A DNA stretch of 64,000 bases, from the IMG/VR virus record IMGVR_UViG_2778261505_000002; one strand, written 5' to 3'. Of the stretch, positions 12,099 to 61,525 are shown piece by piece. The DNA is from a virus. Its lineage: Duplodnaviria > Heunggongvirae > Uroviricota > Caudoviricetes. The position numbers were made by a program, and so were the translations under genes. Below the pieces are notes generated by a model, which did not search any database, was not told the DNA's origin, and saw nothing but the letters and a program-made list of their open reading frames with translations. The stretch's first letter is position 1; each line of letters starts with the position of its first letter.

Positions 12099-12162
12099 AA
12101 ACCTCTTTCCTTAGTGCCTTTTGTATGTTATTTGGCTATTATAATAAGTAAGTGATTACTTA

Positions 12163-12861
12163 GTGGATTGTAGCAATAAAATGGATGTAAAAATCACGAT
12201 TTTGCAGGTTGATGTTGCCAACCTTCGCCCGAATACCTGGAACACCAATTCGGTTGGTGCGCAGAATTTTGAAAAACTGAAAGGTTCTATCGAAAAATTG
12301 GGCTTTTTTAAGCCAATTTTGGCTCGTGAACTTGAAGATGGATTTTTTGAAATCCTCGGCGGCGAACATCGCTGGCGTGCTGCTATTGAGCAAGGAATTT
12401 CAACGGTTCCGGTGCTTTCTGTGGGCAAAATTAGCGATGTCGTAGCTAAACAGATGTCACTGGTGGACAACGAGCGATACGGTGAAGACGACCAAATCGC
12501 ATTGCAACGCTTCATTGAAGAAATTCAGTCAGAACTTGACTATCAACTGTCTGAAATCGCTCCGTATGACGACGAAATCTCGATGGTTTTAGCAAAAGAG
12601 GCGGCAATCGACCTTGAAGCACTGGAGGCGTTGTCTCGTGGTAGTGATGAGCCTGTCGATACCGACAAACGAGAGAAAACCGAACGTGTGGGTGCGGAAC
12701 ATCAGACCATGCGCTTCAAAGTAACTTTCGATGCGTCAGATCGTGTTGCAGAAACCATAAAAAACATCATCAAAGAGCAGGCTATTAACACCGGTAATGA
12801 AATGGAGAACGCTGGTGAGGCTCTGGTGTGGCTGGTCGACTACTACAAGGAGCGTATGTAA
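12163..12861 (+). CDS. ParB N-terminal-domain (ParB/Srx-fold) protein
   Basis: GGEHRWRAA resembles the ParB arginine-rich box; start could be 12181. Confidence 0.6.
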   Translation: MDCSNKMDVKITILQVDVANLRPNTWNTNSVGAQNFEKLKGSIEKLGFFKPILARELEDGFFEILGGEHRWRAAIEQGISTVPVLSVGKISDVVAKQMSLVDNERYGEDDQIALQRFIEEIQSELDYQLSEIAPYDDEISMVLAKEAAIDLEALEALSRGSDEPVDTDKREKTERVGAEHQTMRFKVTFDASDRVAETIKNIIKEQAINTGNEMENAGEALVWLVDYYKERM

Positions 12862-13529
12862 TGACCAAAAAGTTTGAAATCGTATATCGCGACCCGGCAG
12901 ATCTTATTCCCTATGAGATGAATGCCAAAAAGCATGATGAACAGCAGATCAGAGATCTGGCCGCAGCCATTAAAAAGCGCGGATTTGACCAGCCAATTAC
13001 GGTCGATAAGAACGACGTAATTATTACTGGCCACGGCCGCCGTGAGGCTGCAATTTTTGCTGGACTTGAGCGCGTACCGGTTATTGTTCGTGATGATCTG
13101 AGTGATGACGAGGTACGTGCAAAGCGCCTTGAAGATAACCGACTTGCCAGCATTGATTACGATGCAATTAAGCTACAGAAAGAGCTTGAGTCGCTTGTTC
13201 TGGACGATATCGAGGTTTTCGGCTTCGAAGAGCGTGAGTTGAATGTTCTCGTTGGCAGTATGACAGAAGAAATGGACACCGACTCGCTAGTTATCGATCT
13301 TGGCGAAGAAACTAAACGACAGAAGGATGAACACACCGAGATCAGTCGTGAAGTTGCAGCGGAAGAAGTACGTGTTGTCGACGTATTGGGCTTTAAAACG
13401 CTCCCTGCTGGCTCTGCCATTGTTGTTGGTGATTTGCTTGCCCACATGGAAGAAATGACGGGAGAAAGCGGGGTAGACGCATTTGTGGCATATGCGGAGA
13501 AGATCTCTTCCGGGGAGATGGCTGCATGA
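12861..13529 (+). CDS. second ParB N-terminal-domain protein
   Basis: GHGRREAA motif; ATG overlaps the upstream stop (TAATG). Confidence 0.6.
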   Translation: MTKKFEIVYRDPADLIPYEMNAKKHDEQQIRDLAAAIKKRGFDQPITVDKNDVIITGHGRREAAIFAGLERVPVIVRDDLSDDEVRAKRLEDNRLASIDYDAIKLQKELESLVLDDIEVFGFEERELNVLVGSMTEEMDTDSLVIDLGEETKRQKDEHTEISREVAAEEVRVVDVLGFKTLPAGSAIVVGDLLAHMEEMTGESGVDAFVAYAEKISSGEMAA

Positions 13530-14191
13530 GCAAATACATCATCAACGTATCGTTTCAGACACGCGTAAATAAAACCACGCGCACGTTGGAAATCGCTGAG
13601 TCGTTCGGGCTTGGCCTGGACGAAAAAGAGTGGACGCTTTACGACAATCTGGAGCTGGAAGTGAAGCAGGGCGATGTGGTGTACATCACCGGCCAATCCG
13701 GTTCCGGCAAATCCGTTGTGCTGCGCGAGTTGCAACGACAGATGAAGGATGAAGGGCTGTCTGTAGCCTCCATCGATGATTTTACCTTCGATAATGAGGT
13801 TAACGTCATCGATCAGTTGGGCAAAACGACCAGTGATGCGCTTGGGTTGTTATCTATGGCTGGTCTGAACGATGCATATCTGTTTGTTCGCAAGCCTTCT
13901 GAAATGTCAGACGGCCAGAAATATCGTCTCAAGATTGCCAAACTGATTGAGTCAGGCGCTAAAGTATGGGCTGCTGACGAGTTCGGCGCTGTTCTAGACC
14001 GTGTAACTGCTCAGGTTGTGGCGTCTAACCTCCAGCGTGCCGCTCGAAAGGTTGGTGCGACGGTAATGGTGGCGACGACTCACGAAGACCTGAAGAACGC
14101 GCTGCGCCCGGATATGCAGATCACCAAGCACTACAAAGAACGCGTGAAGGTGGAATATCACAATGGTAGTCATGATGAGGTCCATTCATGA
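13526..14191 (+). CDS. small ABC-type ATPase (nucleotide-binding-domain-like, 221 aa)
   Basis: Walker A GQSGSGKS, signature-like MSDGQ, Walker B VWAADEF, H-loop TTHE; ATGA overlap with upstream gene. Confidence 0.6.
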   Translation: MSKYIINVSFQTRVNKTTRTLEIAESFGLGLDEKEWTLYDNLELEVKQGDVVYITGQSGSGKSVVLRELQRQMKDEGLSVASIDDFTFDNEVNVIDQLGKTTSDALGLLSMAGLNDAYLFVRKPSEMSDGQKYRLKIAKLIESGAKVWAADEFGAVLDRVTAQVVASNLQRAARKVGATVMVATTHEDLKNALRPDMQITKHYKERVKVEYHNGSHDEVHS

Positions 14192-15078
14192 CGGACATCA
14201 TCATTAAACGCTACCGCCCTGAAGAGTTTCCGCGTCATCTGGACTTTCTGGAGCGAATGACTGTTACAAAAGGAACTGTAGAGGACTGGCACGCTCTTAA
14301 GTCGCTTCACTACAAAACAGACGGCAAACCTTTCGCGCCAACTTACTATCGCTGCGAACTTGATGACCGTCTGGTGGGCGTCGTGGTTATGGCTTACCCG
14401 AAACTACTGCTGGCACCTCGCCATCGCATGTTTCCTAAGTTGAAACCAACCACCAATACCACCGTGGCTAACCAGTACTGGGGCCGGTACGTGAATAACA
14501 ACTTTGCGGTGATCAGCCGCTCAGTCGTGGATACTCAGTACCGTGGCGTAGGCGTCTCTTATCGAATGATTAACCTGGTTAGCAGGATGCATGACCGGCC
14601 AATCATTGAGATCCAGTCATCGATGAGCAAATACAATCCCTTCGCCATGAAAGCAGGGTTTAAGTTCATCCGCCCTGAGCGACCGAAGAGCTATGAAAGT
14701 GCACTGCGTGTGTTCCAGCGCCATTTCCGCTCCGACCCGGGTGATAACGAGGCGATCGTCAAAGAGTTGTTCGCTATGAGCGAGTCTCGTCGTCGCCGTG
14801 CACTGCGTGATCTGGTGGCGGACTACCACAAGAACAGTTCCCTGGCAAAAGCTGGGCGGAATCGTGGCACGACGATTCAGGACATTGCCGACAGTCTGGT
14901 GGACGAGGCCAGCATTGTGAAGCTGCTCAAGGACATTCACAACCTGAGCTTTACGTCTCCGTTGTATGGTGTGTATCGAAACCCTGACTTTGGTCGTCGA
15001 CTGCCTGACACGCTGCCACTGCTGGCATTCGACAAACAACCTTTGGATAAACCGTTAGAAATTGCTTTACCGGCATAA
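14188..15078 (+). CDS. hypothetical protein with possible GNAT acetyltransferase-like core
   Basis: TQYRGVGVSYRMIN resembles GNAT motif A (R-x-x-G-x-G); weak. Confidence 0.4.
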   Translation: MTDIIIKRYRPEEFPRHLDFLERMTVTKGTVEDWHALKSLHYKTDGKPFAPTYYRCELDDRLVGVVVMAYPKLLLAPRHRMFPKLKPTTNTTVANQYWGRYVNNNFAVISRSVVDTQYRGVGVSYRMINLVSRMHDRPIIEIQSSMSKYNPFAMKAGFKFIRPERPKSYESALRVFQRHFRSDPGDNEAIVKELFAMSESRRRRALRDLVADYHKNSSLAKAGRNRGTTIQDIADSLVDEASIVKLLKDIHNLSFTSPLYGVYRNPDFGRRLPDTLPLLAFDKQPLDKPLEIALPA

Positions 15079-15087
15079 GGATTTGCC

Positions 15088-15354
15088 ATGACGTTAACCG
15101 ATAAACAAAAGGACATCATCAAAACGCTCAATCTCGGTTATGAGCGAGGTCATCTACTTGACCTGGACGAATTGCTTGAAGTTTTGCCGTACAAGACAAC
15201 CAAGCAAAGTATCCAGTTCTCAATTCGCGCTCTGATAAAAAAGGGGCTGGTGGAGAAAGGGCATACGCGCCAACGCAGTGACAATCGCTATCACCGCCGA
15301 ACTCTTGGGTTAACTACTTTAGGTCGAGCCAAAGCGAAGTTACTGGTGATGTAA
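15088..15354 (+). CDS. small winged-helix DNA-binding protein (88 aa)
   Basis: HTH-like segment TTKQSIQFSIRALIKKGLV; basic C-terminus. Confidence 0.4.
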   Translation: MTLTDKQKDIIKTLNLGYERGHLLDLDELLEVLPYKTTKQSIQFSIRALIKKGLVEKGHTRQRSDNRYHRRTLGLTTLGRAKAKLLVM

Positions 15355-15378
15355 TCGGTCTGGGAGCTTATTTAAAGA

Positions 15379-15433
15379 CCTGCTTCTGTATATATAAATA
15401 ATAAGTAACTTATTAAATATATACGGAAGCAGG
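15379..15433. repeat. 55 bp palindromic element, copy 1
   Basis: CCTGCTTCTGTATATATAAATAATAAGTAACTTATTAAATATATACGGAAGCAGG; near-identical copy at 47837-47891. Confidence 0.7.
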
Positions 15434-15468
15434 CTTCGTAAGACATGCCAGACCTAATTAAACACCCC

Positions 15469-15510
15469 AGAAAACAAGTTGGTTAGCAGATGCAGTAAAC
15501 AAGTTGTTTT
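15469..15510. promoter_or_regulatory. two tandem early-family dyads (AGAAAACAAGTTGGTT, GTAAACAAGTTGTTTT)
   Basis: Upstream of terminase small subunit gene. Confidence 0.45.
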
Positions 15511-16182: not shown

Positions 16183-17438
16183 TGGCAATCCCGTCCTCGC
16201 TCAGTCTTGTGCAACTGCATTCTGGACAGATGAAAGTCTTCCAGTCTCCGCATCGATTTAAAGTTGTTTGTGCTGGTCGACGCTGGGGAAAATCCCGGTT
16301 GTCGATCTCCACTATTATTCGTGCGGCGGCAAAGGAAAAAAAGCAAAGGGTCTGGTATGTCGCTCCTACTTACCAGATGGCTCGCCAGATTTTGTGGGAC
16401 GATCTACAGGAAGTTCTGCCTCGTAAGTGGGTTAGGAAAAAGAACGACACCACGATGACAATCGTGTTGAAGAACGGTTCGGAGATCGCCCTCAAAGGTG
16501 CTGATAAGCCTGACACTCTGCGCGGCGTAGCGTTGCATTTTGTAGTGCTTGATGAATTTCAGGATATGAAGGCTGACACCTGGTACAAGGTGTTACGACC
16601 TACTCTTTCATCGACACGCGGCGGTGCACTGATCATTGGTACGCCAAAAGGCTTCTCGGAATTTCACAAACTGTGGACTATAGGCCAGAACGTAGAGCTG
16701 CAAAGAAAGGGACAGTGGAAGAGCTGGCAGTTTGTAACTGCCGATTCTCCGTTTGTACCTACGGCGGAAATTGAAGCTGCTAAGAACGATATGGACCCCA
16801 AATCGTTCGCTCAGGAGTACCTGGCCAGCTTTGAGAACATGTCCGGGCGCGTTTACTACCCGTTCGATCGTAACGTGCATGTAAAACCGCTTCAGTTCAA
16901 CCCTCGGTTGCCTATATGGGTAGGGCAGGACTTCAACATTGACCCGATGTCTTCAGTAATTTTGCAACCTCAGCCAAATGGTGAGCTATGGGCAATTGAT
17001 GAATTGGTGCTCTTTTCCTCTAACACGGCAGAAGTTTGTGATGAGCTTGAGAGACGCTTCTGGCGCTGGAAATCACAGGTAACGGTATTTCCAGATCCGG
17101 CAGGTGCTTATCGCCAACATGCTCGTGGGGAGTCTGACGTAGACATATTCAAAGAGAAGGGATTCTTACGTGTCGATTATTCGAAAAAGCACCCGCCAAT
17201 TGCGGATCGTGTTAATGCTGTTAACCGAATGCTGATGTCCGCATCTGGAGATATCCGGCTGTATATCGATCCGAAGTGCAAGCATTTGATTGATTCACTG
17301 GAAAAAGTCATCTACAAGCCTGGAACACGAGATATGGATAAGACAGGTGGCATTGAGCATAGTGCAGACGCATTGGGCTATCCAGTACATCGTAGGTATC
17401 CAGTCAAAAACCGTGTTATTCTTGGTGGTTCTCGATAG
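16182..17438 (+). CDS. terminase large subunit
   Basis: Walker A-like CAGRRWGKS, Walker B VVLDEF, C-terminal nuclease-like region. Confidence 0.8.
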   Translation: MAIPSSLSLVQLHSGQMKVFQSPHRFKVVCAGRRWGKSRLSISTIIRAAAKEKKQRVWYVAPTYQMARQILWDDLQEVLPRKWVRKKNDTTMTIVLKNGSEIALKGADKPDTLRGVALHFVVLDEFQDMKADTWYKVLRPTLSSTRGGALIIGTPKGFSEFHKLWTIGQNVELQRKGQWKSWQFVTADSPFVPTAEIEAAKNDMDPKSFAQEYLASFENMSGRVYYPFDRNVHVKPLQFNPRLPIWVGQDFNIDPMSSVILQPQPNGELWAIDELVLFSSNTAEVCDELERRFWRWKSQVTVFPDPAGAYRQHARGESDVDIFKEKGFLRVDYSKKHPPIADRVNAVNRMLMSASGDIRLYIDPKCKHLIDSLEKVIYKPGTRDMDKTGGIEHSADALGYPVHRRYPVKNRVILGGSR

Positions 17439-17464
17439 GTAAGTAATTATCTAAGGTTATTCAA

Positions 17465-19039
17465 ATGGAATTGAACGACAAACAAATTAAGGATCTGGTG
17501 GCGCGACGCCACCCGGAATACGAAAAGAAAAAAGAACATTGGGACTTCCTCGCCAGCACTTACGCTGGCGGGCGTGGTTGGTTTACAGACAATATCTTTC
17601 GTTACTTTAAAGAGGGAGATCAGGAGTTTAAGGAGCGTGTTGAGCGTGCCTATCGCTTCAACCACACTCGTGAGGTGGTAAACCTCATCAACAAATATCT
17701 CTTTAAAGAAGACATTCATAGAAATATCGAAGAGGCACCAGAGCAGATCCGCAATTTCTGGAAACGTGCGACTCGCCAGAATGCCTCTATTGACTCATTT
17801 ATGGCCGCCATTGATTTGCAGTCGTCTATTTACGGTCGCATATGGGTTGTTGTCGATAGCACGATGAGTGGTGATGTTGAGTCAGTAGCTGACGAGAAAA
17901 AGAAAGATGCTCGCGCCTACGCCTACTGGATTTCACCTCAGCAAATGCTGGATGTGGCATGGGACGACGACGGGAATATGTTGTGGGCGTTAATTGTGGA
18001 AGTCGCTCGCGATGACGCAGATCCTTTTACTTCTACAGGTCAGGAATACCAACGTTATCGTCTGTGGACACAAAACGAGTGGTATCTGTTCCGTGAGGAA
18101 GTGAAGAAGGGCGCTGGTGGAGCAGGTCGCCGTCAGGCAAAAGTTATTTTAGAGGATAGCGGTGAGCATAATCTCGGCGTAGTTCCTGTATTTCCTGTTG
18201 ATTGTATTGGAGAAAGTGAATCACCGTATTTCAGCCCATCGTTGATCGATGATATCGCTTATCTTGATCGTGCGGTTGCAAACTATCTGTCAAACCTTGA
18301 TGCCATTATTCAGGATCAGACATTTAGCCAGTTGGCTATACCGGTACAGTCGCTTTTACCTGGTGATGAAAACCACACTAAAGTGCTTGAAATGGGCACA
18401 AAGCGAGTCTTCACCTACGATTCTGAAGGTGGAAACCAGCCGTTTTATCTGTCACCAGACCCGAAACAAGCTCAGATGATCATCACTACGATTAAGACGG
18501 TGATTAACGAAATCTACCATTCAGTTGGTGTAGCTGGTGAGCGAACGAAGCAGGACAACGCACAGGGAATCGATAATTCATCTGGTGCCGCAAAAATGTA
18601 TGACTTCCAGCGTGTAAATAGCTTGCTTGTCACAAAAGCAGAGCGTCTGGAAAGGGCTGAACGCCAAATCATGCTACTGGTTGCGAAATGGATGGGGGTA
18701 GATCTGGACGAAGACCACTCTTTAATTGCGTATCCAGAAAGTTTCGATATTCGTGGCCTTACTGATGAATTTTCTGTTGCCGAGAAACTGTCATTACTTC
18801 AGGCACCGGACTCTGTACGTCGTCACCAGATGGAAATGCTTATTGAGAAGATTTTCCCGAACATTACTGAGGCGATGAAAAAGGAATTTGATAAAGATCT
18901 CTTGAATTTTCCTCCAAAAAATGATCTAAATACCCTTGAAAATAAGTCAGTACTTACTTATGATCGTGGTGCAGCCCAAGAAAGCGGGCAAGATCAACCC
19001 CGAGGGAATGGGGACTCATCTACTCAAGAGAACGAGTGA
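17465..19039 (+). CDS. portal protein
   Basis: 524 aa ORF immediately after TerL; assignment by position and size. Confidence 0.7.
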   Translation: MELNDKQIKDLVARRHPEYEKKKEHWDFLASTYAGGRGWFTDNIFRYFKEGDQEFKERVERAYRFNHTREVVNLINKYLFKEDIHRNIEEAPEQIRNFWKRATRQNASIDSFMAAIDLQSSIYGRIWVVVDSTMSGDVESVADEKKKDARAYAYWISPQQMLDVAWDDDGNMLWALIVEVARDDADPFTSTGQEYQRYRLWTQNEWYLFREEVKKGAGGAGRRQAKVILEDSGEHNLGVVPVFPVDCIGESESPYFSPSLIDDIAYLDRAVANYLSNLDAIIQDQTFSQLAIPVQSLLPGDENHTKVLEMGTKRVFTYDSEGGNQPFYLSPDPKQAQMIITTIKTVINEIYHSVGVAGERTKQDNAQGIDNSSGAAKMYDFQRVNSLLVTKAERLERAERQIMLLVAKWMGVDLDEDHSLIAYPESFDIRGLTDEFSVAEKLSLLQAPDSVRRHQMEMLIEKIFPNITEAMKKEFDKDLLNFPPKNDLNTLENKSVLTYDRGAAQESGQDQPRGNGDSSTQENE

Positions 19040-19060
19040 TAAGTAACAAAAGGAATTTTT

Positions 19061-20852: not shown

Positions 20853-20886
20853 TCAGTGTGGTAGATAAGTAATTATCTATGTTTAA

Positions 20887-20912
20887 GGGTGGGCTATACG
20901 CCCACCCTTTTT
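20887..20912 (+). terminator. rho-independent terminator
   Basis: GGGTGGGC-TATAC-GCCCACCC followed by TTTTT. Confidence 0.8.
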
Positions 20913-24431: not shown

Positions 24432-24505
24432 GTTAATCGGTAAGTATATACTTACTGTTAGCGCAATGAATGCGTAGAATTAACGGAAAAAGGAGTTTTC
24501 CATCA

Positions 24506-30929: not shown

Positions 30930-31011
30930 GCATCTGGATAAGTAAGTACTAATTTACTATCATTGTGGCGCTGACAGGATGTTAGCGCCTACTTATTTCA
31001 AGGATGAAACA

Positions 31012-37820: not shown

Positions 37821-37913
37821 TGGTGGAAAAAAAATTTTATATCGGTAAAAATAGGTAAGTATCTACTTAATGGCGGGCAAGGATAGCCCGCCAAATCAAG
37901 GAGCATATTCAAC

Positions 37914-40900
37914 ATGTGGTACAGGGAAGGTACTATCACATTTACACAGGGCAGCAATACTCTGGTTGGGGCAGGGACAGCCTGGAACGTAACAGCTAAT
38001 GGTGTGTTGCCGGGGATGATCGTCATTGGCCCCGACAATAAGCTGTATGAGATCAAGCGCGTAACCAGTGATACGAACATTGTTCTCTCAGAACCTTATA
38101 CCGGCGAAACTCAGTCTGAAGTTCCGTGCCGAATCATTACGACCTATGAAGGCGACTTAACACAGTTTAGCGCGCGCTTTACTGCGCTAATGTCGCGTAT
38201 ATCGGCTGATTCCAAGTCCATACGCAGTTGGTTGACTGCGCTGGATGAGGTGACAATCGAGCGTGAAGACGGTACAGAAGTGACCGTTAAGCCGCTAATG
38301 CAGATCGTCAACGAGCACAACGAAAACGTTGAGTGGTATAAAAATAACACTGACGCGATTGATGCTGCTGGCGACAAAGCTCGTGAGGCGGCGGCCAGTG
38401 CTGCCGCAGCAGCAAAAAGCGCCAATGCCGCTGGAGAAAAAGCCTCTCAAGCGTCTCAAAGTGCATCCGCTGCGGCATCCTCACAAAGTGCCGCAAGTGC
38501 GAGTGCAACTGCTGCGAAAAAATCTGAAACGAATGCTGCAGCGTCACAAAAATCTGCAGCCACTTCTGCATCCACCGCGACCACGAAGGCGTCAGAAGCT
38601 GCCACCTCAGCCCGGGATGCGGCGGCCTCAAAAGAGGCAGCGAAATCATCAGAAACGAGCGCAGCCTCGAGCGCCAGTAATGCCGCTTCCTCGGCAACGG
38701 CGGCAGGAAATTCCGCGAAGGCGGCAAAAACGTCCGAGACGAACGCCAGGTCTTCTGAAACGGCAGCGGGACAGAGCGCCTCGGCTGCGGCAGGCTCAAA
38801 AACAGCGGCTGCGTCGTCTGCCAGTGCCGCGTCAACAAGTGCCGGGCAGGCCTCAGCCAGTGCCACCGCCGCCGGAAAATCGGCAGAAAGTGCCGCATCG
38901 TCTGCTTCAACTGCCACAACGAAGGCTGGCCAAGCCACTGAACAGGCCAGCGCAGCAGCGAGGTCTGCTTCCGCAGCGAAGACATCCGAAACGAACGCGA
39001 AAGCGTCGGAAACCCGTGCAGAATCCTCAAAAACGGCAGCCGCATCGTCCGCCAGTTCGGCGGCGTCATCGGCATCATCGGCGTCTGCTTCAAAAGATGA
39101 GGCGACCAGACAGGCGTCAGCAGCGAAGGGCAGCGCCACGACGGCATCCACGAAAGCAACAGAGGCGGCAGGCAGTGCGACGGCAGCATCTCAGAGCAAA
39201 ACTGCTGCTGAATCCGCTGCGACCCGTGCGGAAGCTGCTGCTGATCGTGCTGAAGAGATTGCCGGTGCAGTTGCGATGGAAGACGCAAGCCTTACAACTA
39301 AAGGTGTTGTGAAACTTAGCAGTGCTGTCGACAGCACCAGTGAATCGCTGGCCGCAACGCCAAAAGCAGTTAAAGCAGCCAATGACAATGCGAATAGCAG
39401 GGTGCCATCTAACCGAAAAGTTAACGGTAAAGCACTGACTGCGGATATCAAATTAACGCCGAAAGATATTGGTACTTTAAATTCAGTAACGATGTCTTTC
39501 TCTGGCGGGGCAGGGTGGTTCAAACTGGCTACGGTTACCATGCCACAAGCGAGTTCCATCGTTTACATCGCATTGATTGGTGGCGCTGGTTACAACGTCG
39601 GCTCCCCACATCAGGCAGGCATTTCAGAACTGGTTCTACGAGCAGGCAATGGAAACCCCAAAGGGATTACAGGTGCTTTGTGGAAGCGTACAGCTGTCGG
39701 ATTAACGAATTTCGCCTGGATCAACACATCCGGCGATACATATGATATTTACGTTGAGATTGGCAATTATGCGACTCGTGTAAATATCCATTGGGATTGT
39801 ACTGCAAATGCGACAGTTTCTATTTATACCTCGCCAACATATTCAGCGAGTAAGCCTTCCAGCGTTACCGATGGTGTTGTTTATACGATGTATAGCACAC
39901 ATCAGAAACCGACGCCGTTAGATATTGGAGCACTGCCAACAACCGGAGGAACAGTTTCAGGTCCGTTGTCTGTTACAGGTGGATTAACTGGTTCATTGAA
40001 TGGTAATGCAAGTACAGCCACGAAATTGCAGACGGCAAGATCTATCGGTGGAGTTGTTTTCGACGGTTCTGCAAATATTAACCTTCCAGGTGTAAACACT
40101 ACGGGTAATCAGAACACCACTGGTAATGCTGCAACTGCTACAAAACTTCAGACGGCAAGAACTATCGGCGGCGTGAGCTTTGATGGTACTGCGAATATTA
40201 ATTTGCCAGGTGTTAATACGACTGGTAATCAGAACACAACGGGCAACGCGGCTACTGCTACGAAGTTGCAGACTGCGCGTACTATCAATGGGGTGTCGTT
40301 TGACGGCTCGGCAAATATTGCCTTGTCGCCAGCAAATATAGGTTGCCCGGCATCTCCTACTGGTTGGTTAACTACAGGAAGTAATGGAGGAGCAATAACG
40401 ACAGCCCAGTTAGTTACTTTGTTGCAAAATAACGGGGCATTCAGTACGAAAGCATGGATCGCTCGTTGTGCATGGGCGTATGCGAATAGTGCATCCATAC
40501 CAGACAGTGAAACTGGTTGTGGCATTATTCCACTGGCGGGTGCTGTGATAGAAGTATTCAGCAATAATACCAACAATTACACCATTCGAATAACAACGGC
40601 CACTACGACAAATGTCTCTGGTGCACTCACTAATGCGGAGTTTATCTATGTGTCTAATGGCTCAAGTTATTCACCTGGATGGCGCAGAGCGTATAACACT
40701 AGAAACAAACCAACAGCTTCTGATGTAGGAGCATTACCGCTTTCAGGTGGCACATTATCTGGAGGGTTAACGTCTTCTGGTGAGATCGTTTCAAAATATG
40801 CAAATGGTTTCCGCATTGCTTACGGTAACTTTGGGTTCTTTATCCGTAATGATGGGGCGAACACATATTTCCTGCTAACAGCATCAGGAGACACATTAGG

Positions 40901-42995: not shown

Positions 42996-43229
42996 ATGAT
43001 GAAAAGATTATTTCTAACAATAGCTGTTGTTCTCTCTCTTACTGGCTGCCAGAAATTGCCGACACCTATATGTTATGGTGAAGCTATCATTGGTGGACAG
43101 GAGACAGTCATACCCATATATGCTGTTAAAAAAGTGAACGACTATACCTTATACAAAGCGGGTAGCATCTATAACTGGCGATGGGTTGGAGTAGGTGCTT
43201 TCTCATCAATCGGTTGCAATGCTGAATGA
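42996..43229 (+). CDS. small lipoprotein (Cor-like superinfection-exclusion candidate)
   Basis: MMKRLFLTIAVVLSLTGC lipobox; 77 aa; located just after tail fibre genes. Confidence 0.5.
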   Translation: MMKRLFLTIAVVLSLTGCQKLPTPICYGEAIIGGQETVIPIYAVKKVNDYTLYKAGSIYNWRWVGVGAFSSIGCNAE

Positions 43230-43298
43230 TAGGTAAGTACACACCTACAACAAAAGGGTGAAATGTGATATAAATCCGCCATCCCGATTTGACTTTTC

Positions 43299-44760: not shown

Positions 44761-45282
44761 TTATTCTTCGAACAATTTTTCGATAGATTTTGTAGGATAG
44801 AACAAAGAACGCTCGTTGTTACCAACCAGCTGGATAAAGTCTAAACTTTTATAAAACGCCTTGGCTTTGTCATTTAACGCCTCAACGAAAAGTCCATGAA
44901 TGCCTACAGCAAGAGATGCATTGTACACAACGCGCATTGCATGTGTTACAAGCATTGAGCCAAATCCTTGACCTTGAAGGGACTTGTCCAAAGCCAGCCT
45001 ACCCAAAGTAACACTTGGAACATTCCGATAAGGTACCTTCTTTTGCTGGCTTCTTGAAGGTAAGGACTCCTTTTCAAAGCAGCTACCTGACAAAGTGTAA
45101 TACCCTAACACTTTTGGTCTGCCTTCTTTCGTGCAAAGCACATAAGCGCGAAGAATTTTTCCCTCATGCTGCCTTTTTAAGTGGTTGGTTAAAAAGGCAT
45201 TTAGTGATTCTTCACCGCAATCAAAACCATTCAAATCATAATCTTTCTCTCCAGAGAAAATTTCTATCTTTATATTATCCAC
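44761..45282 (-). CDS. GNAT-family acetyltransferase toxin (TacT/AtaT/KacT-type)
   Basis: GNAT motif A QGQGFGSMLV; 173 aa; immediately downstream of DUF1778-like gene. Confidence 0.75.
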   Translation of the reverse strand: MDNIKIEIFSGEKDYDLNGFDCGEESLNAFLTNHLKRQHEGKILRAYVLCTKEGRPKVLGYYTLSGSCFEKESLPSRSQQKKVPYRNVPSVTLGRLALDKSLQGQGFGSMLVTHAMRVVYNASLAVGIHGLFVEALNDKAKAFYKSLDFIQLVGNNERSLFYPTKSIEKLFEE

Positions 45283-45289
45283 GAGTAAA

Positions 45290-45559
45290 CTACTCCATGC
45301 TTTTCAGACGATCAGCAGCTCGTTTCAGCTTGTCGTTCGGTGCCGGAGGATTGCTTATAGCGTCCATAACCAGATTCCAGGATTCTTCATTCAGAACTAG
45401 TCTACGGTGTTGCTCTATAACTTTCACGGCACGTTCAGATGCACTGCTAACCATAAACTGAGTAATGCTCTGGTTAGACATTGCGGCAGCTTCCTCGATG
45501 ATGCTTTTATCGTCATCGGTTAATCTCAAATCGATGCGCTGCTTTTTTAGTGCTGACAT
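45290..45559 (-). CDS. RHH antitoxin (DUF1778/TacA-type)
   Basis: About 90 aa; ATG 45559 with GGAGG RBS; 8 bp from toxin start. Confidence 0.7.
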   Translation of the reverse strand: MSALKKQRIDLRLTDDDKSIIEEAAAMSNQSITQFMVSSASERAVKVIEQHRRLVLNEESWNLVMDAISNPPAPNDKLKRAADRLKSME

Positions 45560-45826
45560 GTATTCCTCCTGATGGCCGTGATGTAGGAAGGCCATCAATC
45601 TCCTCTGTTCAAACTGAGTTTTCGACTCAAAAATTACTTTAAAAGGCTATAGCCCATTACGTGTGCATTATCAAATTGTGTACGGCATATCACCGTACTT
45701 GTAATATAGAGGTCATTGTTACTTTTTTCAACAGACAAATACAAGCTATGTTTGCCAATTGTTAATCACAACCTACCATTTAACCTTTACACCGCAGCCG
45801 TAGGCATTTAGGCTATATCACATATA

Positions 45827-47836: not shown

Positions 47837-47891
47837 CCTGCTTCCGTATATATAAATAATAAGTAACTTATTAAATATATACGGAAGCAGG
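47837..47891. repeat. 55 bp palindromic element, copy 2
   Basis: Near-identical to 15379-15433. Confidence 0.7.
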
Positions 47892-47998
47892 TCTTTTAAA
47901 AGACACCACCAGAACAACTCCCTTCCGTTTCCACTTCCAAAAACTGCCACCAGTCGCTATCATCCGCTCATTGTGATAAGTAAGTAACTACCTACCAG

Positions 47999-51395: not shown

Positions 51396-51470
51396 CAATC
51401 ACCTTCAAAATAAGTAGATGATTACTTATCTTTCTGTGAGAATACTTTCATCTGTTAGCTAGGAGTTGGT

Positions 51471-52253
51471 ATGAAAGACGAAATTCAGAAATTAGCCTGC
51501 GACATCATTGATAAAACTGGTTTAGAAATCAGCGAGAGCAATCGGCTAGACATCATTGAAAAAGCCGTAAAAACAGCAATGGATCATATCGCCACTCGTT
51601 TGGTCGAGATCCCGCTACCGGGGCTACCTTATCTGAAGGTTAAGTTACACGTATGGGGTGAACCTTCTTGTGCACGGCGTTCTGCATTAGTTGTTTTTAT
51701 TAGCAAAGAAAACCCGATCAGTCTTAAAGTGCAGGTTGGGGCATGGATGGATGGCAAAGTGATCTACACAAATACCGTTTTTTGTGCGTCAAATGACAGT
51801 ATTATTGAAGAGGCTATTCAAGAATCACTTCTAACTATGCATAGCTTATTTTTGCTGGAAGACAAGCAAAACTACGAAGAGTACTTACGGTCGATAAAAG
51901 GTGAGAGAACATTGTCACTTAAAGCCGATTTCGTTACCCCGACAAACCTGTTGGAAGTCTTGCTTAATAAAGGGGCTAATGATGCCGTAAATGTAATCAG
52001 AGAGAGTGAGTATGCGTCTCTTTGCGACATGTGCAAAAGCCAGTTGGATCTGGTGCATATCGTTATTGATGCTGGGAAGGCATGTGATGGCGTAATGGCG
52101 GAGTTTGCTGGGAAGATGGTCAGGATTGCTAACGAATTACCGATGATAGAGCAAGAGGCTAAATCATACGCCACCAATCATGTCACAGAGCTTCTTGTCC
52201 CCTATCGCTTAGAAAGCGATCAGCGCAAGATGATTAGCTGGGGAAGTTGGTAA
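51471..52253 (+). CDS. hypothetical protein (260 aa)
   Basis: ORF. Confidence 0.45.
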   Translation: MKDEIQKLACDIIDKTGLEISESNRLDIIEKAVKTAMDHIATRLVEIPLPGLPYLKVKLHVWGEPSCARRSALVVFISKENPISLKVQVGAWMDGKVIYTNTVFCASNDSIIEEAIQESLLTMHSLFLLEDKQNYEEYLRSIKGERTLSLKADFVTPTNLLEVLLNKGANDAVNVIRESEYASLCDMCKSQLDLVHIVIDAGKACDGVMAEFAGKMVRIANELPMIEQEAKSYATNHVTELLVPYRLESDQRKMISWGSW

Positions 52254-52308
52254 GCTCTCAGTGTGTCGTTTTTTACGCAAATAATGATAGGTAAGCACAA
52301 GATTATTT

Positions 52309-52791
52309 TTGGCGGTAATTGTGAAAGCTGATTTGTCAAAAATCCCCTCTATTTCAGGAAATAATGGTTATTCACTTCGTTGTGAGGAAGTAAAGATAAA
52401 CGGTGAGTCGGCATATTGCAGCTACTCCGTTTGCCAGCACACCATTCTTGCCTTCAAAGAAAACCGTCTTCCTCGAACTTCATTCCAGTCGTGCGCAACC
52501 GCTATCAAAGCAGGCAAATGCAAGGCGTTAAAAATGATGGTTGAAGAGATTCGTAAAGGAGAATCTCTGTATTTCGAAGATATGACCGCGCTCATTAAGG
52601 AGGTTGAAGAACGGAATAAACAAGCCAGAACTTTAAAACGAAAACGTGACAGTGTAACGATTAATAGCATGGTTAAGAAGAGCGCCACATCACAAACAGC
52701 GATCACTGACGTGTATGCGGCGTTGCTTGAAGAAACAACAAAAGAAACACATGAGCAAATCGATCAACATATGGAGGTAAAACAACAATGA
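52309..52791 (+). CDS. hypothetical protein (about 160 aa; start uncertain, non-ATG)
   Basis: ORF; no clear RBS. Confidence 0.35.
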   Translation: MAVIVKADLSKIPSISGNNGYSLRCEEVKINGESAYCSYSVCQHTILAFKENRLPRTSFQSCATAIKAGKCKALKMMVEEIRKGESLYFEDMTALIKEVEERNKQARTLKRKRDSVTINSMVKKSATSQTAITDVYAALLEETTKETHEQIDQHMEVKQQ

Positions 52792-54921: not shown

Positions 54922-55310
54922 AAACATATTGATAAGTATTTACTTACTTATCTTTTATGTATAAGATGACTTTGTTTTCGTTGAGACGCGACTGTTTGAA
55001 CTTAAATACAAGTGCAAACGAAGAAGTCTATCTGGCAGTAGCCTAATAAGCCAAACACCAGCGAGGTCAGTTTCCAGCCTCGTTACCGAAATGGGACACA
55101 CTGAGCGAGTGTGATTGCAGAACGCAGGAGGGAACATTCATGTTCCCTCCGATGAAGTAACAGAATGGGCGGTTGGTATATTTTCAACTCCATATGACTC
55201 CCGGATTCTTAGCCACTGACCGCCCATCCTGTTACGTCATTTTGTTCAATTATGTCGTTTATACTGGGTTAAAAAGCGGCGACGTAGCCCGGCTGGTATG
55301 GTTAGCCAGC

Positions 55311-55699: not shown

Positions 55700-55774
55700 G
55701 ATGGTGTAGCTCAGCGGTAGAGCAGTTGGCTGTTAACCAACTGGTCGGTGGTTCGAATCCACCCACCATCGCCA
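55700..55774 (+). tRNA. tRNA-Asn (anticodon GTT)
   Basis: Cloverleaf folded by hand: 7 bp acceptor, D arm, anticodon loop CTGTTAA, T loop TTCGAAT, 3' CCA encoded. Confidence 0.85.
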
Positions 55775-55779
55775 ATTTA

Positions 55780-55866
55780 GGGGAGTTAGTCCGTAGAGGT
55801 AGCGGTGTAGACTGTAAATCTACTGTCATTGCGACTCGGGTGGTTCGACTCCATCACTCCCCACCA
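55780..55866 (+). tRNA. tRNA-Tyr (anticodon GTA), long variable arm
   Basis: Acceptor GGGGAGT/ACTCCCC, anticodon loop CTGTAAA, T loop TTCGACT, CCA encoded. Confidence 0.85.
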
Positions 55867-55870
55867 AATT

Positions 55871-55946
55871 GCCGGTTTAGCTCAGTTGGTAGAGCGCCTG
55901 CCTTGTAAGCAGGATGTCAGCGGTTCGAGTCCGTTAACCGGCACCA
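55871..55946 (+). tRNA. tRNA-Thr (anticodon TGT)
   Basis: Acceptor GCCGGTT/AACCGGC, anticodon loop CTTGTAA, T loop TTCGAGT, CCA encoded. Confidence 0.8.
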
Positions 55947-56163
55947 ACACAACAGGAAAGAGCATTGAAAACCGCCGAGACTGCCCTGTTTTAAGCGTAA
56001 GTCCGTGCAAACGTCATACAGTGCTCTTTTCGTTGTGGTTGATGCGCAGACTGATGCGCGGAAAGAAATGCCCCAGCGACACACGAGGCGAGTTCACACA
56101 CTGCAATGCAGTCAGTAGCCGGGGTCGCTAAGCCGGAGATCAGTACCGGTAACCACAACAATT

Positions 56164-56250
56164 GGAGAGTAGGGAGCATGGTGCTCAAGCGGTCTTGAAA
56201 ACCGTCCCATTGTGCAAGCGATGATGGTTCGATTCCATTACTCTCCGCCA
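56164..56250 (+). tRNA. tRNA-Ser-like (anticodon TGA), atypical D arm
   Basis: Acceptor GGAGAGT/ACTCTCC, anticodon loop CTTGAAA, long variable arm, T loop TTCGATT, CCA; D arm non-canonical. Confidence 0.55.
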
Positions 56251-57274: not shown

Positions 57275-58378
57275 ATGAAAAATAGCTTTGACAGAGCACG
57301 CGCTGCGGAGAACACCTCAAAAGAGGCGATTGAGTATCTCGAAAGAGCATCTCAAATGCAGGCCGTTATGATCTCGCAGGTTAGCAATGATATGAGATTC
57401 TCGGACGCATTCATGTTATTTACTCGCTTATCTCTGCTGATAACCAGACGTCGGCCAGAGATCGCTGTTCATTGTATTTTGATACATGTTTTGCCGCACA
57501 TTGCCGATGTAAAAGTAAGTGACATTAATAGGTTCATGGTGAACCAACTGGTCAACCCACTAATACTGGATGGCAAAATTGTTATGGGCCGCCGCGTTTT
57601 CTCTCTGATGAAGCAGTTCCTTAGCTGGTGCGCCTTCCAGGGGATGATAGACGTGTCACCGTTAAACGATATGTCACTTAACAAAGTTGCCGGTGGCGCA
57701 AAGCCCACACCTCGCGAGCGGAAGCTGACCGACGCAGAGGTATGGGTGTTCTGGAATATATGGGACTACTTCAATGTGTGCGCTGGTACAAAATGGGCGG
57801 CCAGGCTGTGTCTTGTATCCGCAAGACGACCTGACGAAGTACTGCGGGCTAAAAAAAGTGAGTTCAATCTTAAGCGTGGGGTTTGGAATCAAGGCAAGAG
57901 GAACAAATCTGCCCGTGAGCATTCGCTGCCTTTAAGCACATTAATGCGCACATGTATTGAAGAGTTGTTCGAATACGGTAAAGGCAGCCAGTGGCTCGTG
58001 CCTTCGAATAAAAAAATCGGGAAAGACCTTCCTATGTCTAAAGTGGCAATAGCCCAGGCATTACGTCGTATTCTGGAACGACCAGAACTGATGGAGCTTG
58101 AGCCATTTACACCCCGAGACTTGCGCCGTACTGCGCGTAGTTACTTCCCAGCATTAGGCATAAGCCAGGAGGTATCACGTAAAATCATGAACCACAGTCT
58201 TGAGGGGATAGATCGAGTCTACGACCGGCACGATTATATGGACGAGATGCGAGACGCCTTAGAAAGTTTCTCGACGTACATCGCATCAATCGTAGAGCAA
58301 CCGGATTTAGACGAAATTGACCACAAATTCAAGGGAGATCGTCTATCAACAGAGCTTATTCGTGTAAATTTTTCATAG
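57275..58378 (+). CDS. tyrosine recombinase / phage integrase
   Basis: C-terminal catalytic pattern R...NHSLEG...RVYDRHDY (Arg, His-x-x-Arg, Tyr). Confidence 0.8.
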   Translation: MKNSFDRARAAENTSKEAIEYLERASQMQAVMISQVSNDMRFSDAFMLFTRLSLLITRRRPEIAVHCILIHVLPHIADVKVSDINRFMVNQLVNPLILDGKIVMGRRVFSLMKQFLSWCAFQGMIDVSPLNDMSLNKVAGGAKPTPRERKLTDAEVWVFWNIWDYFNVCAGTKWAARLCLVSARRPDEVLRAKKSEFNLKRGVWNQGKRNKSAREHSLPLSTLMRTCIEELFEYGKGSQWLVPSNKKIGKDLPMSKVAIAQALRRILERPELMELEPFTPRDLRRTARSYFPALGISQEVSRKIMNHSLEGIDRVYDRHDYMDEMRDALESFSTYIASIVEQPDLDEIDHKFKGDRLSTELIRVNFS

Positions 58379-58759
58379 AGACTTTATGGCCTCAACAACC
58401 TTTTGTGATGCGCCTTTCTCTTTACCGAATCGCTCGTTATATGCAGCAAGAACCTGTTTTTCGTCCTCGTTAAGAGGAGCGGTGCCTTCTTTGTATAAAA
58501 ATGCTGCGAGTTCAGGTTGGCGTTCTTCCAGCACCATCATCATAAGACGACTTGGCTCAATACCCAGCGCCAGCGCCAACGGACGAACCTTATCGATAGG
58601 CAAAGGAATTTTGCCACTTTTAATTAAAGAAAGGTTGTTGGCATTTTTATAACCAATAAGTCTGGCTATTTGGGCCTGACTCATAGGTGAGGATTCAATC
58701 AGCCCTGCGATAAAAGCAGCATAGCGACTTTCTATAAATTCAATCTTGTTGTCAGACAT
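58373..58759 (-). CDS. HTH (XRE-like) DNA-binding protein, candidate repressor
   Basis: HTH segment SQAQIARLIGYKNANNLSLIKSGK; convergent with and overlapping the integrase 3' end. Confidence 0.55.
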   Translation of the reverse strand: MSDNKIEFIESRYAAFIAGLIESSPMSQAQIARLIGYKNANNLSLIKSGKIPLPIDKVRPLALALGIEPSRLMMMVLEERQPELAAFLYKEGTAPLNEDEKQVLAAYNERFGKEKGASQKVVEAIKSL

Positions 58760-59010
58760 TGTTACAACCTTTGCGCGTTCAATTCTCACTGGTAAGTGCT
58801 TACCGATATTACATCAAAGGTTAGGGTTGTAAAGCTATTATCATTTTTTTCGATAGGCACTTAAAAGACCGGTTAAAGGCCATTGCACGGAGAAAAATTA
58901 GCCCAAAACAGGTAAGAAAATTAACTTGTATATGATATGAATGTATTCAGTATTGATATAAATTTTAGTAGTATTCCTTACCATAGTATAAGTTAGAATG
59001 GATTGATTGA

Positions 59011-59223
59011 ATGAACACCACTATTTCCAGCCTAATCGCTCTTGAGATCGGACACGTACAGAAATTAGCTGATGAGTGTGTAGCTGACATCCTCACCGAT
59101 CTACCGAATGAGCAGATTCAGGTTGGTGTGAATGACACAACTGGCTTTATATTCGAATTTAACAACAAACGCTTCACGCTTCTCAATACCGGCTCCGGGT
59201 CTTTAGCCGTCAGAATCTGTTAA
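59011..59223 (+). CDS. hypothetical protein (70 aa)
   Basis: ORF. Confidence 0.35.
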   Translation: MNTTISSLIALEIGHVQKLADECVADILTDLPNEQIQVGVNDTTGFIFEFNNKRFTLLNTGSGSLAVRIC

Positions 59224-59321
59224 CCCCTCTTCTCCCTGCGCGAATGGCTTAGTTCCCTGTTCGCGCAGTGCTACATTAAACACACTAGTAAATAATTTGT
59301 TTTCATAACAAAGGATTAGCC

Positions 59322-61430
59322 ATGTCTAAAAAACGTTCCATCAAAGAGGTTCAGGACTTCCGTGACAGTGTAAAACGAGTAGTCGCTCTCCTTTCAGGTA
59401 AAAACATCCCTGTTGCAGAACGAGGGGACGACGCTTATGTTCGCTATAACGATGATGGAGAGCCAATTCTCGTAAACATCCCATCAATCCCGGATAACGC
59501 AACACCGGCATTGATGAATGCTGTGCGCGGATTTCTCGATCATGAGGTTGCTCACATTTTGTTTACCGATATTCGTGTGTCCAACAAAATGAGAGAAAAA
59601 GGACGCGTTCCTTCCTGGTCGCTATGGAATGCCTTAGAAGACGTGTTCATCGAGCGAAAAATGGGTCAGGTCTTTAACGGAACAAGACGTAATCTGATGG
59701 CAACTCAGCGCCTTATAATCGAAAAAGTCTTTAAACCAAAGGCTTCAGAGGCTATTGCTTATTGTGGCAAAGATCAGCGCGCGCTTTTTCTAAACTTCTT
59801 TCTCTGTCCGGTTGTAAGAGCCTGGGATGGCCAAGCACCGTTCGTAGATTTCATGGATGAATATTGGCCTGTCATTGAGAAACCAATTTCATTATTAAAA
59901 GAACATGGTATCGATGTGGCCGTGCGTAACATGTCTTGCACCGAGGATTGTGTAAAGGTGGCTGCGACCATAGCTAAGATCCTCAAAGACACTGAAAGTG
60001 AAAGCAAAGGTAAGGAGTCAGCTCCGGGAAAAACTTCCGATCCTTCAGACGCTGACCAGACGGATGCCTCTGGAGAAAACAGTGAAGACAACGAAGATCA
60101 TGAGACACCCTCAGTGTTAGATAATCACAAATCTATCAAATCAGAATCACACAGTAAGCACAAACATGATAATAACGACAGTGATGATTCAGATAATTCT
60201 GAATCATCAGAAACAATATTCGATGATACAGAAAATGATAAAGAGGTATCAGATTCTGATGCTTCTGATAACGCGGCGTCAGAATCATTAACCGCTGACC
60301 ACGAAAAAAGAAAAACGACAGAAGACGGCTCTTCAGATATCCCAACTCCGTCAAAAATGAGTCTGGAAGAGGCTTTAGAGGAGTTGGATAGCATGGAAGA
60401 TGAAGTCGGAGGCATGACAGAAGATGCGCTATCCGAAACGATTAAAAGCGAGTTAACAGAAAGCTCGAAAAGCGAATACAGGCCATACAATCGCTCATAC
60501 GACTTCATCGGCTCGATTGATCAGGCAGAAGCCCATATCAAACGGCTTATTAAAACATTCTCCGATATTGATTTGGGAGGATATCCAATCAGCCGCTATC
60601 GCATCGTTCCTGAAGGCAACCAGCTCTTCGACAAATATATTGAAAAGCATCTTTCGTCAGGTGTTTCGTCGACGCTGGCAAAAGACCTGGAGCGAGCAAT
60701 AGCAAGCAGAAACAGAGTTCAGTTTATACCGGGCCAGCGTCGGGGGCGCATTCATGGTTCTAGTATCTACAGATTAGCAATGAATGATGCTCGCGTGTTT
60801 CGTAAAAAAGAAGAATCTAAAGCCGTTAACGCCTGTGTTCAACAAGTGATTGATTTATCAGGTTCAATGAGTGGTATAACGATACAATTGGCTCTTGCAA
60901 GTGCATATACCATCGCCGATGCCCTTGATCGAATAAATGTTCCCAACATTATCACCGGCTTCACTACATTTGGTAGTCATATGGCGGCAGGAGAACTTAA
61001 GGCTGTCAAGTATGAGTTCTCTCGCTTTGAATCTTTAATGCTACCTATCATCAAAAATTGGAATGAAAAGGTAAATTCTCGCGAAGTTCGCTCACGTATG
61101 GGGTGCGTAGGCTACACATTCCCACTTCTTAATAACGTGGATGGTGAAAGCATAGCCAGCCTTGCATCGTTATTTTCCGGTCGCTTGGAGGACAGGAAGA
61201 TCATGCTTGTTCTGAGTGATGGCGCGCCGTGGGCTGTTGGGAGAGGTTTTGACGCTCATTTGCGTTCAGTTGCGAAGCAAATTGAAACGCAGACTGATAT
61301 TGATTTGATGGCAATTGGCATCATGACTGACGCACCGGAGAGATTTTACTCAAATCATGCCCTGGTAACGAGCGTTGATAGTCTTGGTTCATCTGTAGTT
61401 ACTGAACTATCTCGTATCATTTTAAAGTGA
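59322..61430 (+). CDS. von Willebrand factor A-domain protein (CobT-like) with acidic Ser/Asp/Glu-rich central region
   Basis: MIDAS motif DLSGSMSG in C-terminal half; long acidic low-complexity linker. Confidence 0.65.
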   Translation: MSKKRSIKEVQDFRDSVKRVVALLSGKNIPVAERGDDAYVRYNDDGEPILVNIPSIPDNATPALMNAVRGFLDHEVAHILFTDIRVSNKMREKGRVPSWSLWNALEDVFIERKMGQVFNGTRRNLMATQRLIIEKVFKPKASEAIAYCGKDQRALFLNFFLCPVVRAWDGQAPFVDFMDEYWPVIEKPISLLKEHGIDVAVRNMSCTEDCVKVAATIAKILKDTESESKGKESAPGKTSDPSDADQTDASGENSEDNEDHETPSVLDNHKSIKSESHSKHKHDNNDSDDSDNSESSETIFDDTENDKEVSDSDASDNAASESLTADHEKRKTTEDGSSDIPTPSKMSLEEALEELDSMEDEVGGMTEDALSETIKSELTESSKSEYRPYNRSYDFIGSIDQAEAHIKRLIKTFSDIDLGGYPISRYRIVPEGNQLFDKYIEKHLSSGVSSTLAKDLERAIASRNRVQFIPGQRRGRIHGSSIYRLAMNDARVFRKKEESKAVNACVQQVIDLSGSMSGITIQLALASAYTIADALDRINVPNIITGFTTFGSHMAAGELKAVKYEFSRFESLMLPIIKNWNEKVNSREVRSRMGCVGYTFPLLNNVDGESIASLASLFSGRLEDRKIMLVLSDGAPWAVGRGFDAHLRSVAKQIETQTDIDLMAIGIMTDAPERFYSNHALVTSVDSLGSSVVTELSRIILK

Positions 61431-61525
61431 ACAAAACAGCCTTAATGATAAGTAACCACTTACGATAGATGATGATATATTTATATAAGAAGTTGAACGC
61501 TCATTAGAGAACAAAGGAAAAACGC

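Follow-up and report, generated by a model that had tools for sequence, protein, structure and literature searches.

Dispersed 20-bp dyads at the gene junctions of an SSU5-like phage-plasmid are probably operators of its own XRE-family repressor

What does a short motif do that recurs between the genes of IMG/VR virus record IMGVR_UViG_2778261505_000002, of which a stretch of 64,000 nucleotides (hereafter the window) was analysed? The initial annotation had noted 14 copies of a motif with the core GATA(A/G)GTAAGTA, often as a dyad, and had proposed late promoters for a dedicated factor, RNA processing sites or recombination boundaries as its function. Over positions 12,000-36,000 the window is 97.6% identical to Escherichia phage CMS-2020a, 96% to Cyrano (pLF82), 94% to PhiR41_1, 81% to Salmonella phage SSU5 and ~79% to Klebsiella relatives, and we therefore assign it to an E. 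coli SSU5-like phage-plasmid, of which it represents 64 kb. From 12.1 kb onward, nearly every gene lies on the + strand. We found no published description of how SSU5-like phage-plasmids keep their lytic genes off, and searches of the literature for the motif string and for SSU5/pHCM2 operators returned no account of the motif or its circuit. The analysis described here suggests that the motif copies are probably dispersed DNA operators of the element's own XRE-family repressor.

Comparison of the flanks of the copies in the window and in SSU5 defined the unit as a 20-bp palindrome, with the half-sites ATARGTAAGT and ACTTACYTAT at fixed spacing (L dyad or L site). The GTAC centre is conserved, the spacing is constant across the sites, and the palindrome can be extended to ~26 bp by an A at -3 and a T at +23. 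The motif was present at every one of the 14 places, 0-9 nt from where it had been put, with only a half-site at 19037; the fixed-spacing palindrome replaces the 12-mer as the unit. The 12-mer GATARGTAAGTA occurs in five exact copies (0 expected) and in 27 copies with at most two mismatches (6.2 expected). The 20-mer ATARGTAAGTACTTACYTAT matches 8, 13 and 19 positions at up to three, four and five mismatches, respectively, as compared with 0, 0.04 and 0.45 in shuffled sequences. The intergenic DNA (6,797 nt) contains 14 L sites versus 0.17 in composition-matched shuffles, and the coding DNA (57,768 nt) contains a single one; several of the 14 intergenic sites, out of 15 in the window, overlap stop codons. 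Positions 1-12,000 have no L site in the 20-mer dyad scan. The placement at junctions between genes and operons, preceding the structural, lysis and replication genes, thus held, with the addition of one site inside the portal gene. SSU5 carries ~27 L sites between 2 and 93 kb, nearly all within the intergenic 11.8% of its genome, and Cyrano carries 27. When the central 18-mer was scanned over 2.9 million viral contigs, its multi-copy occurrence was essentially limited to SSU5-like contigs, and the other contigs had single matches at the chance level. These counts and positions support the L dyads as a second cis-element family, distinct, as had been claimed, from the early dyad family GAAAACAAnTTGTTTTC. 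The best-conserved positions of the L sites include five TA steps with an exact 4-bp spacing (T2A3, T6A7, T10A11, T14A15 and T18A19).

The most specific link to a regulator is found at the gene for a putative 128-amino-acid XRE-type helix-turn-helix repressor (58373-58759, - strand), the proposed binder of the dyads. It is the orthologue of CYRAN_45, a helix-turn-helix protein encoded beside the integrase and labelled a putative (master) repressor by the authors of the Cyrano study (PMC9928086). Its promoter, TTTACA-16-TAATAT with a TG extension (58806..58833, - strand; extended -10, TGTAATAT), is immediately followed by an L dyad at 58788..58807, the proposed autoregulatory operator, whose core GGTAAGYACTTACC (minus-strand core GGTAAGCACTTACC) begins 1 nt past the -10. 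This arrangement of the promoter and GGTAAGYACTTACC was invariant in the 76 IMG/VR loci read, in which the repressor identity ranged from 57 to 100%, and was the same in a Klebsiella plasmid, S. Typhi pHCM2 and Y. pestis pMT1. Among profiles, the repressor scored with PHROG phrog_8 'transcriptional regulator' (4.9e-12). The repressor is present in 961 PLSDB plasmids and the portal protein in 966, with matching genus profiles. The integrase, the XRE repressor and a divergent 70-amino-acid gene occur together in ~960 plasmids and in 9 of the 12 SSU5-like phage records that are closely related (88% portal identity or more). The SSU5 record itself lacks all three (compared with window positions 57275-59223), which fits SSU5 being a repressor-deletion, lytic derivative.

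A diverged relative allowed the repressor and the dyad to be compared jointly. In the Acinetobacter element NZ_CP140436, the repressor is 38-48% identical and has a different recognition helix, and a different dyad occupies the homologous place, after GCTGTAAT. The corresponding palindrome, ATCAGTCAGT joined to ACTGACTGAT, occurs at 16 sites in 50 kb versus 0.32 expected; 15 of the sites are intergenic, four lie in the repressor's own switch region, and the other 12 are dispersed elsewhere. The enterobacterial and Acinetobacter consensus sequences are equally long and share their centre; the differences between them fall at symmetric positions. Neither consensus was enriched in the other's genome when the window element and NZ_CP140436 were compared.

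We analysed conservation in 160 IMG/VR loci around the portal and DnaB genes, from which the orthologous junctions were recovered. The L dyads stand at the same junctions in relatives with 69-100% portal identity; the comparison with related genomes that had been named as a check thus found them kept across ~160 related contigs. At 5 of 7 junctions, the dyad columns have at most half the entropy of the adjoining non-coding columns. The most distant lineages carry the variant dyads ATAGGTATnTAAATACCTAT and GTATGTAAAT..ATACATAC, with the same outer bases and a changed centre, and these variants are found at the in-gene portal site too. The loci obtained for the repressor do not include the contigs with variant dyads (L076, L077 and L081).

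Since several copies resemble small hairpins whose loops are GNRA-like, the RNA reading was put to the test. Among the mismatch events in 14 ortholog groups, counted by positions and states, 30 were G·T, which is tolerated in the + strand RNA, and 29 were A·C, which is tolerated only on the opposite strand. The purine/pyrimidine pair at positions 4 and 17 occurs in all four combinations with no covariation, and an A·C is fixed at 47976. The summed predicted hairpin energy is equal on the two strands, and the sites at 47976 and 52287 form essentially no + strand hairpin. The half-site match sums (left vs right) are 151 vs 127 in the window lineage and 238 vs 236 in SSU5; the better left half is a trait of the window lineage that is absent in SSU5 and other relatives, and either arm can be degenerate in SSU5. 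The equal halves, the parity of G·T and A·C, the lack of covariation, the strand-equal energies and the fixed spacing are the sequence signature of a double-stranded DNA site, presumably read by a symmetric dimer. RNA hairpins, which had an early appeal because of the GNRA-like loops and the A-T / G·T / G-C series at 20861, were rejected on the mismatch counts, strand energies and half-site symmetry. The proposal of RNA processing sites is disfavoured by the same data, with no strand preference, no G-U excess, no purine/pyrimidine covariation and some hairpin-free sites.

The position of the dyad relative to promoters varies, as is usual for repressor operators and as would be expected here if the dyads are such sites. 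At the three obligatory promoters (12144, 47976 and 58788), a conserved -10 lies upstream of the dyad, which is thus 3' of the -10; the dyad is in the spacer at 18942 and 5' of the extended -10 at 51410. The L dyad at 12144..12163 (ATAAGTAAGT joined to GATTACTTAG) lies in the divergent region between the leftward (-) helicase operon and the rightward (+) ParB-like operon, directly 3' of a conserved + strand -10 (TATTAT, TAGAAT or TATGAT in relatives). The dyad at 47976..47995, ahead of the replication operon, spans ~+7 to +26 and is located 14-15 nt 3' of a conserved -10 (TATCAT/TATGAT). In a sigma70 promoter scan, a few dyads coincided with promoter-like matches. Sigma70-like matches in the window from 12000 to 64000 were 2- to 4-fold rarer than in dinucleotide shuffles (10 vs 21.5, 11 vs 28.9 and 6 vs 22.4), a depletion suggestive of selection against accidental promoters in this lytic region.

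Expression values for LF82(Cyrano) lysogens, with a background of 9.8, were taken from the supplement of the Cyrano study (PMC9928086). The repressor gene CYRAN_45 is expressed at 96, and the Cyrano lytic genes are at background (PMC9928086). With three exceptions, the co-oriented gene that follows an L site shows only background expression. Expression drops at L sites from 54.6 to 6.2 (the 47976 junction), from 43.7 to 8.8 (the 52287 junction), from 31.5 to 7.5 and from 20.2 to 11.3. At 12144, the rightward ParB-like operon (12181-15354) is silent in the lysogens (5-9.5) and the leftward helicase operon is on (46-114). The partly induced samples showed no consistent RNA rise across the L sites.

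We infer that the XRE repressor binds the dyads, probably as a symmetric dimer, and represses transcription through them. The copy at 58788 overlaps the start site of the repressor promoter, where binding would result in autoregulation. The ~14 further sites in the window, and ~25-30 per genome, lie at the entries of lytic transcription units and at their internal junctions. At 12144 and 47976, which must be promoters and whose operons are silent in lysogens, the bound repressor would block initiation or early elongation, because the dyad is just 3' of the -10, and at intra-operon junctions it would obstruct read-through as a roadblock. A single protein could thereby keep a 100-kb virus silent during plasmid carriage.

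Several observations weigh against this proposal. The gene after the dyad at 51410 (51471-52253) is expressed in lysogens (43.7). The Pfam families HTH_19, HTH_3 and HTH_37 match the repressor at E-values of 0.0015-0.035, under the curated cut-off, and the helix-turn-helix assignment therefore rests on phrog_8, the HTH/XRE labels in plasmid and phage records, and the alignment. The operator at 58788 has the outer triplets ATC...AGA, as compared with ATA...TAT at the dispersed sites. SSU5 lacks the repressor yet has ~27 well-formed dyads, which implies either a recent loss or another SSU5-encoded factor that needs the sites. Finally, the co-variation comes from one diverged lineage only, and the first 50 kb of the Aeromonas plasmid pKAM329_1 contain no evident dispersed palindrome.

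The retention of the dyads in SSU5 also favours a different binder: the dyads might be DNA sites of some other backbone phage protein, and their likeness to the repressor operator might mean that the two proteins share sites or compete for them, as a Cro-like or antirepressor-type partner would. The candidates are a 92-amino-acid protein (10261-10536, -), an 88-amino-acid winged-helix protein (15088-15351, +) and the ParB_N proteins (12181-13529), and the dyad at 12144 lies between the operons that encode all of them. The 92-amino-acid protein (CYRAN_117) is expressed at 114 in lysogens, 12 times the background, and may have a ribbon-helix-helix N-terminus (hhalign P 0.0045 in that register, with a probability of only 7.7%), but its AlphaFold model is of low confidence (pLDDT 54). 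Given the weak profile match, this model and the lack of relatives in the PDB, we rejected a ribbon-helix-helix repressor as the main binder and kept the protein as a rival only. The 88-amino-acid protein matches LexA_DNA_bind weakly over its full length (E 0.072), is annotated as 'DNA binding domain' in Cyrano and has a recognition helix conserved across lineages; however, the ParB-like operon that includes its gene is silent in lysogens. A ParB/KorB-type binder was also rejected, as the similarity of the two ParB_N proteins to Spo0J/Noc is mostly confined to the N-terminal domain and no helix-turn-helix was recognizable in them. No candidate has a dyad arrangement as invariant as that of the XRE repressor promoter, and we consider another binder rather unlikely. 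Activator-dependent middle or late promoters, with an activator on a palindrome centred at ~-20 and adjoining a -10-like TATCAT, as in the P1 Lpa promoters, seem improbable. TAT-n-AT is indeed frequent at dyad positions 18-23 (T23 in 58% of the unique sites; TATCAT at 8 of ~27 SSU5 sites), TTGAAA stands exactly 17 bp 5' of this hexamer at two sites (window 18942 and SSU5 55695), and a winged-helix gene lies just before terS. However, the flank has its mirror image on the opposite strand (A at -3 in 59%), and the -10-like hexamer is therefore read as an extension of the palindrome. The start codon is only 1-16 nt beyond several L sites, where such a promoter would cut off the ribosome-binding site; a terminator directly follows the dyad at 20861; the -10 is upstream of the dyad at the three obligatory promoters; and the RNA does not rise consistently across the sites. 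Together with the absence of a fixed geometry between the dyad and the -10, these findings disfavour the late promoters of the initial annotation, as those of the hairpin analysis disfavour RNA processing; its idea of a dedicated factor, phage-encoded, is supported.

A role in the mRNA, as hairpins or operators that an FljA-like Hfq-fold protein binds or an RNase cleaves, thereby controlling the translation or stability of the next cistron, is quite improbable. Most dyads lie 3-60 nt ahead of start codons in transcribed DNA, the backbone encodes an FljA-family protein, and the left half GAUAAGUAAG resembles GAUAAGGAAAAG of the fliC leader; FljA binds the fliC mRNA (PMC4122451). Against this stand the hairpin energies without strand bias, the hairpin-free sites, the equality of G·T and A·C, the lack of covariation and the degeneracy of either arm in SSU5. 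The fliC leader is, moreover, far closer to the other dyad family, with which it shares CAAGTTGT. An FljA-like protein was rejected as the binder of the L dyads because the fliC leader of Salmonella and Citrobacter resembles the GAAAACAAnTTGTTTTC family, not the L dyads. It is highly improbable that the dyads are passive or structural repeats, such as recombination boundary sequences for module exchange, REP-like palindromes or stop-codon clusters. As properties of the sequence rather than test results, TAAGTAAGTAA contains stop codons in all three frames, and 20-mers common to gene junctions could seed recombination. However, the conservation goes well beyond the need for stop codons, exceeding that of the flanking non-coding DNA at 5 of 7 junctions, and the L sites are orthologous rather than mobile. 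The dyad is AT-rich, unlike REP elements, and no REP-associated (RAYT) transposase was found among the ~35 open reading frames of the window that were searched, the rest of the window and genome being outside that search. Passive repeats would also leave unexplained the copy at the repressor promoter and the lineage-wide sequence switch in Acinetobacter.

The L dyad at 17435..17454, at the terminase/portal junction, contains the terL stop codon TAG and ends 10 nt before the portal ATG. The site inside the portal gene (18942..18961, one mismatch) lies 87 nt before its stop codon and in the spacer of a sigma70-like promoter formed by TTGAAA and TATGAT. At the portal stop codon itself, there is only a left half-site, GATAAGTAAC (19038..19049, +). 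The dyad at 20861..20880 is located 8 nt past the major capsid gene, and an intrinsic terminator (20887-20912) begins 6 nt later; that at 24436..24455 is ahead of the major tail gene and is followed by a GC hairpin with compensatory changes in relatives. Further dyads lie between minor tail genes M and L (30938..30957), between the J-like tail gene and the tail fibre gene (37851..37870), and over the stop codon of the gene preceding the holin (43229..43248). The dyad at 51410..51429 has four mismatches; the gene at 51471-52253 has its conserved extended -10, TGTGAGAAT, downstream of this dyad. The site at 52287..52306, ahead of the gene at 52309, matches well in its left half and poorly in its right half. 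A dyad with two mismatches (54932..54951) lies between convergent genes, before the tRNA cluster, and a weak site with six mismatches, GATAAGTAACCACTTAC (61448..61467), between the cobT-like and cobS-like genes.

GC-rich hairpins occur 2-10 nt after several of the structural-operon dyads (24461-24475, 20887-20912, 30967-30989 and 37872-37893), and among these only the one at 20887 has a T-run. The hairpin at 24461 shows compensatory changes among relatives (GCGC..GCGT / GCAC..GTGC / GTGTGTC..GACAC). Two large palindromes of ~55 bp (CCTGCTTCCGTATATATAAATAATAAGTAACTTATTAAATATATACGGAAGCAGG; ~15379-15433 and 47837-47891) have a centre that resembles the L dyad. Each of these copies, at least two in number, is at an operon end just before a lytic unit, and the palindrome is also found in SSU5 (~33,470 and ~78,320) and at the Cyrano record's right end. 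Possible roles are that of a bidirectional terminator or of a site for another protein. The silent operon at 12181-15354 (+) encodes two ParB_N-domain proteins, an ABC-type ATPase, a 296-amino-acid protein with a weak acetyltransferase match and the 88-amino-acid winged-helix protein. Elsewhere, the window contains the 3' part of a methionyl-tRNA synthetase gene (13-1446), a cluster of four tRNA genes (Asn, Tyr, Thr and Ser; 55700-56250) and a TacA/TacT (KacT)-type toxin-antitoxin pair (44761-45598, -), which is highly expressed in Cyrano lysogens. A hypothetical Cyrano gene near the integrase, CYRAN_43 (Cyrano 40268-40822, -), reaches 7084 in lysogens versus the background of 9.8, a ratio of ~720.

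The GAAAACAAnTTGTTTTC family has 14 matches at up to three mismatches versus 0.66 expected, and its sites end 9-23 nt before start codons. Its 17-mers are at 1529, 1580, 4687, 5590, 6354, 15470, 15495, 45828, 48758 and 59288, and the one at 6354 is very similar to the fliC leader of Salmonella/Citrobacter (both contain CAAGTTGT...GATAAGGAA). The FljA-family protein (9238-9762, -; PF03614, E 2.5e-84) is modelled as two Hfq-like domains, and FljA is an mRNA-binding translational repressor of fliC (PMC4122451). The GAAAACAAnTTGTTTTC sites and this protein may form a translational-repression network. We tentatively raise the possibility, which is far from certain, that SSU5-like phage-plasmids, including pHCM2 and pMT1, silence ~80 kb of lytic genes by two superimposed networks. 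One would be the XRE repressor on ~25-30 operators, as promoter blocks and roadblocks, and the other the FljA-family tandem-Hfq-fold protein, repressing translation from GAAAACAAnTTGTTTTC hairpins whose distance to the start codon is 9-23 nt; such a repressor would have been taken from flagellar phase variation or donated to it. SSU5 would then be a virulent repressor-deletion derivative.

By analogy, the closest known systems would be the dispersed C1 operators of P1, the stoperators of cluster A phages and the CIRs of phiC31. The stoperators, bound by the L5 gp71 repressor, are asymmetric sites of 13-14 bp that are oriented with transcription, number tens per genome and are thought to stop read-through in the lysogen. 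The L dyads resemble them in their number and in occupying short intergenic gaps inside operons, often touching stop codons, but are 20-bp palindromes without a family-wide orientation (the SSU5 half-site sums being nearly equal), and the repressor family differs. The P1 C1 operators are asymmetric 17-bp sites (ATTGCTCTAATAAATTT) at the promoters of replication and regulatory genes, and the late genes of P1 are controlled indirectly via Lpa. P1 shares with the present element the state of a plasmid prophage and many operators over ~100 kb for a single repressor, as proposed here; unlike in P1, the L sites are inside the structural operon itself. The phiC31 CIRs are 17-bp palindromic repressor sites, ~18 or more in number and some at early promoters, for a large multi-isoform repressor, and phiC31 integrates. 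Both phiC31 and the window element repeat a palindrome in many intergenic gaps, but the L dyad has another sequence and 20 bp, and its element replicates as a plasmid.

Three other comparisons are instructive. In the IncP plasmid RK2, KorA and KorB act on dispersed short palindromes and their operon is autoregulated; KorB, a CTP clamp of the ParB family, acts at a distance. The short palindromes across a plasmid, the many operons and the autoregulation proposed here are similar, but the ParB_N proteins of the window, unlike KorB, have no recognizable DNA-reading domain. Lambda CI and Cro use six operators at two loci. As in the lambda switch, a putative helix-turn-helix repressor is divergent from a small gene, a proposed dyad operator overlies its own promoter and an integrase adjoins; unlike in lambda, there is one clear full dyad in the switch region and ~25-30 elsewhere. 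P1 late promoters have a palindrome between the -35 position and the -10, with a fixed geometry and an activator. A palindrome between the -35 position and the -10 is found at L sites as well, but their position varies and the expression data fit repression. The role of Lpa at the P1 late promoters has been described (PMC8198154).

SSU5-like phage-plasmids are frequent in clinical Enterobacteriaceae and Acinetobacter (~960 PLSDB plasmids), with pHCM2 and pMT1 among them, and they are reported to be able to bear resistance genes (PMC9600943). If the proposed reading is true, the operator/repressor pair would be defined and would yield a testable map of the lysogeny circuit, and immunity groups would be predictable from sequence (enterobacterial versus Acinetobacter operator types). 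It would also explain the lytic behaviour of SSU5 and provide handles for curing or engineering SSU5-like elements. The dispersed-operator strategy of P1, L5 and phiC31 would then have arisen in another large phage-plasmid lineage, with a palindromic site.

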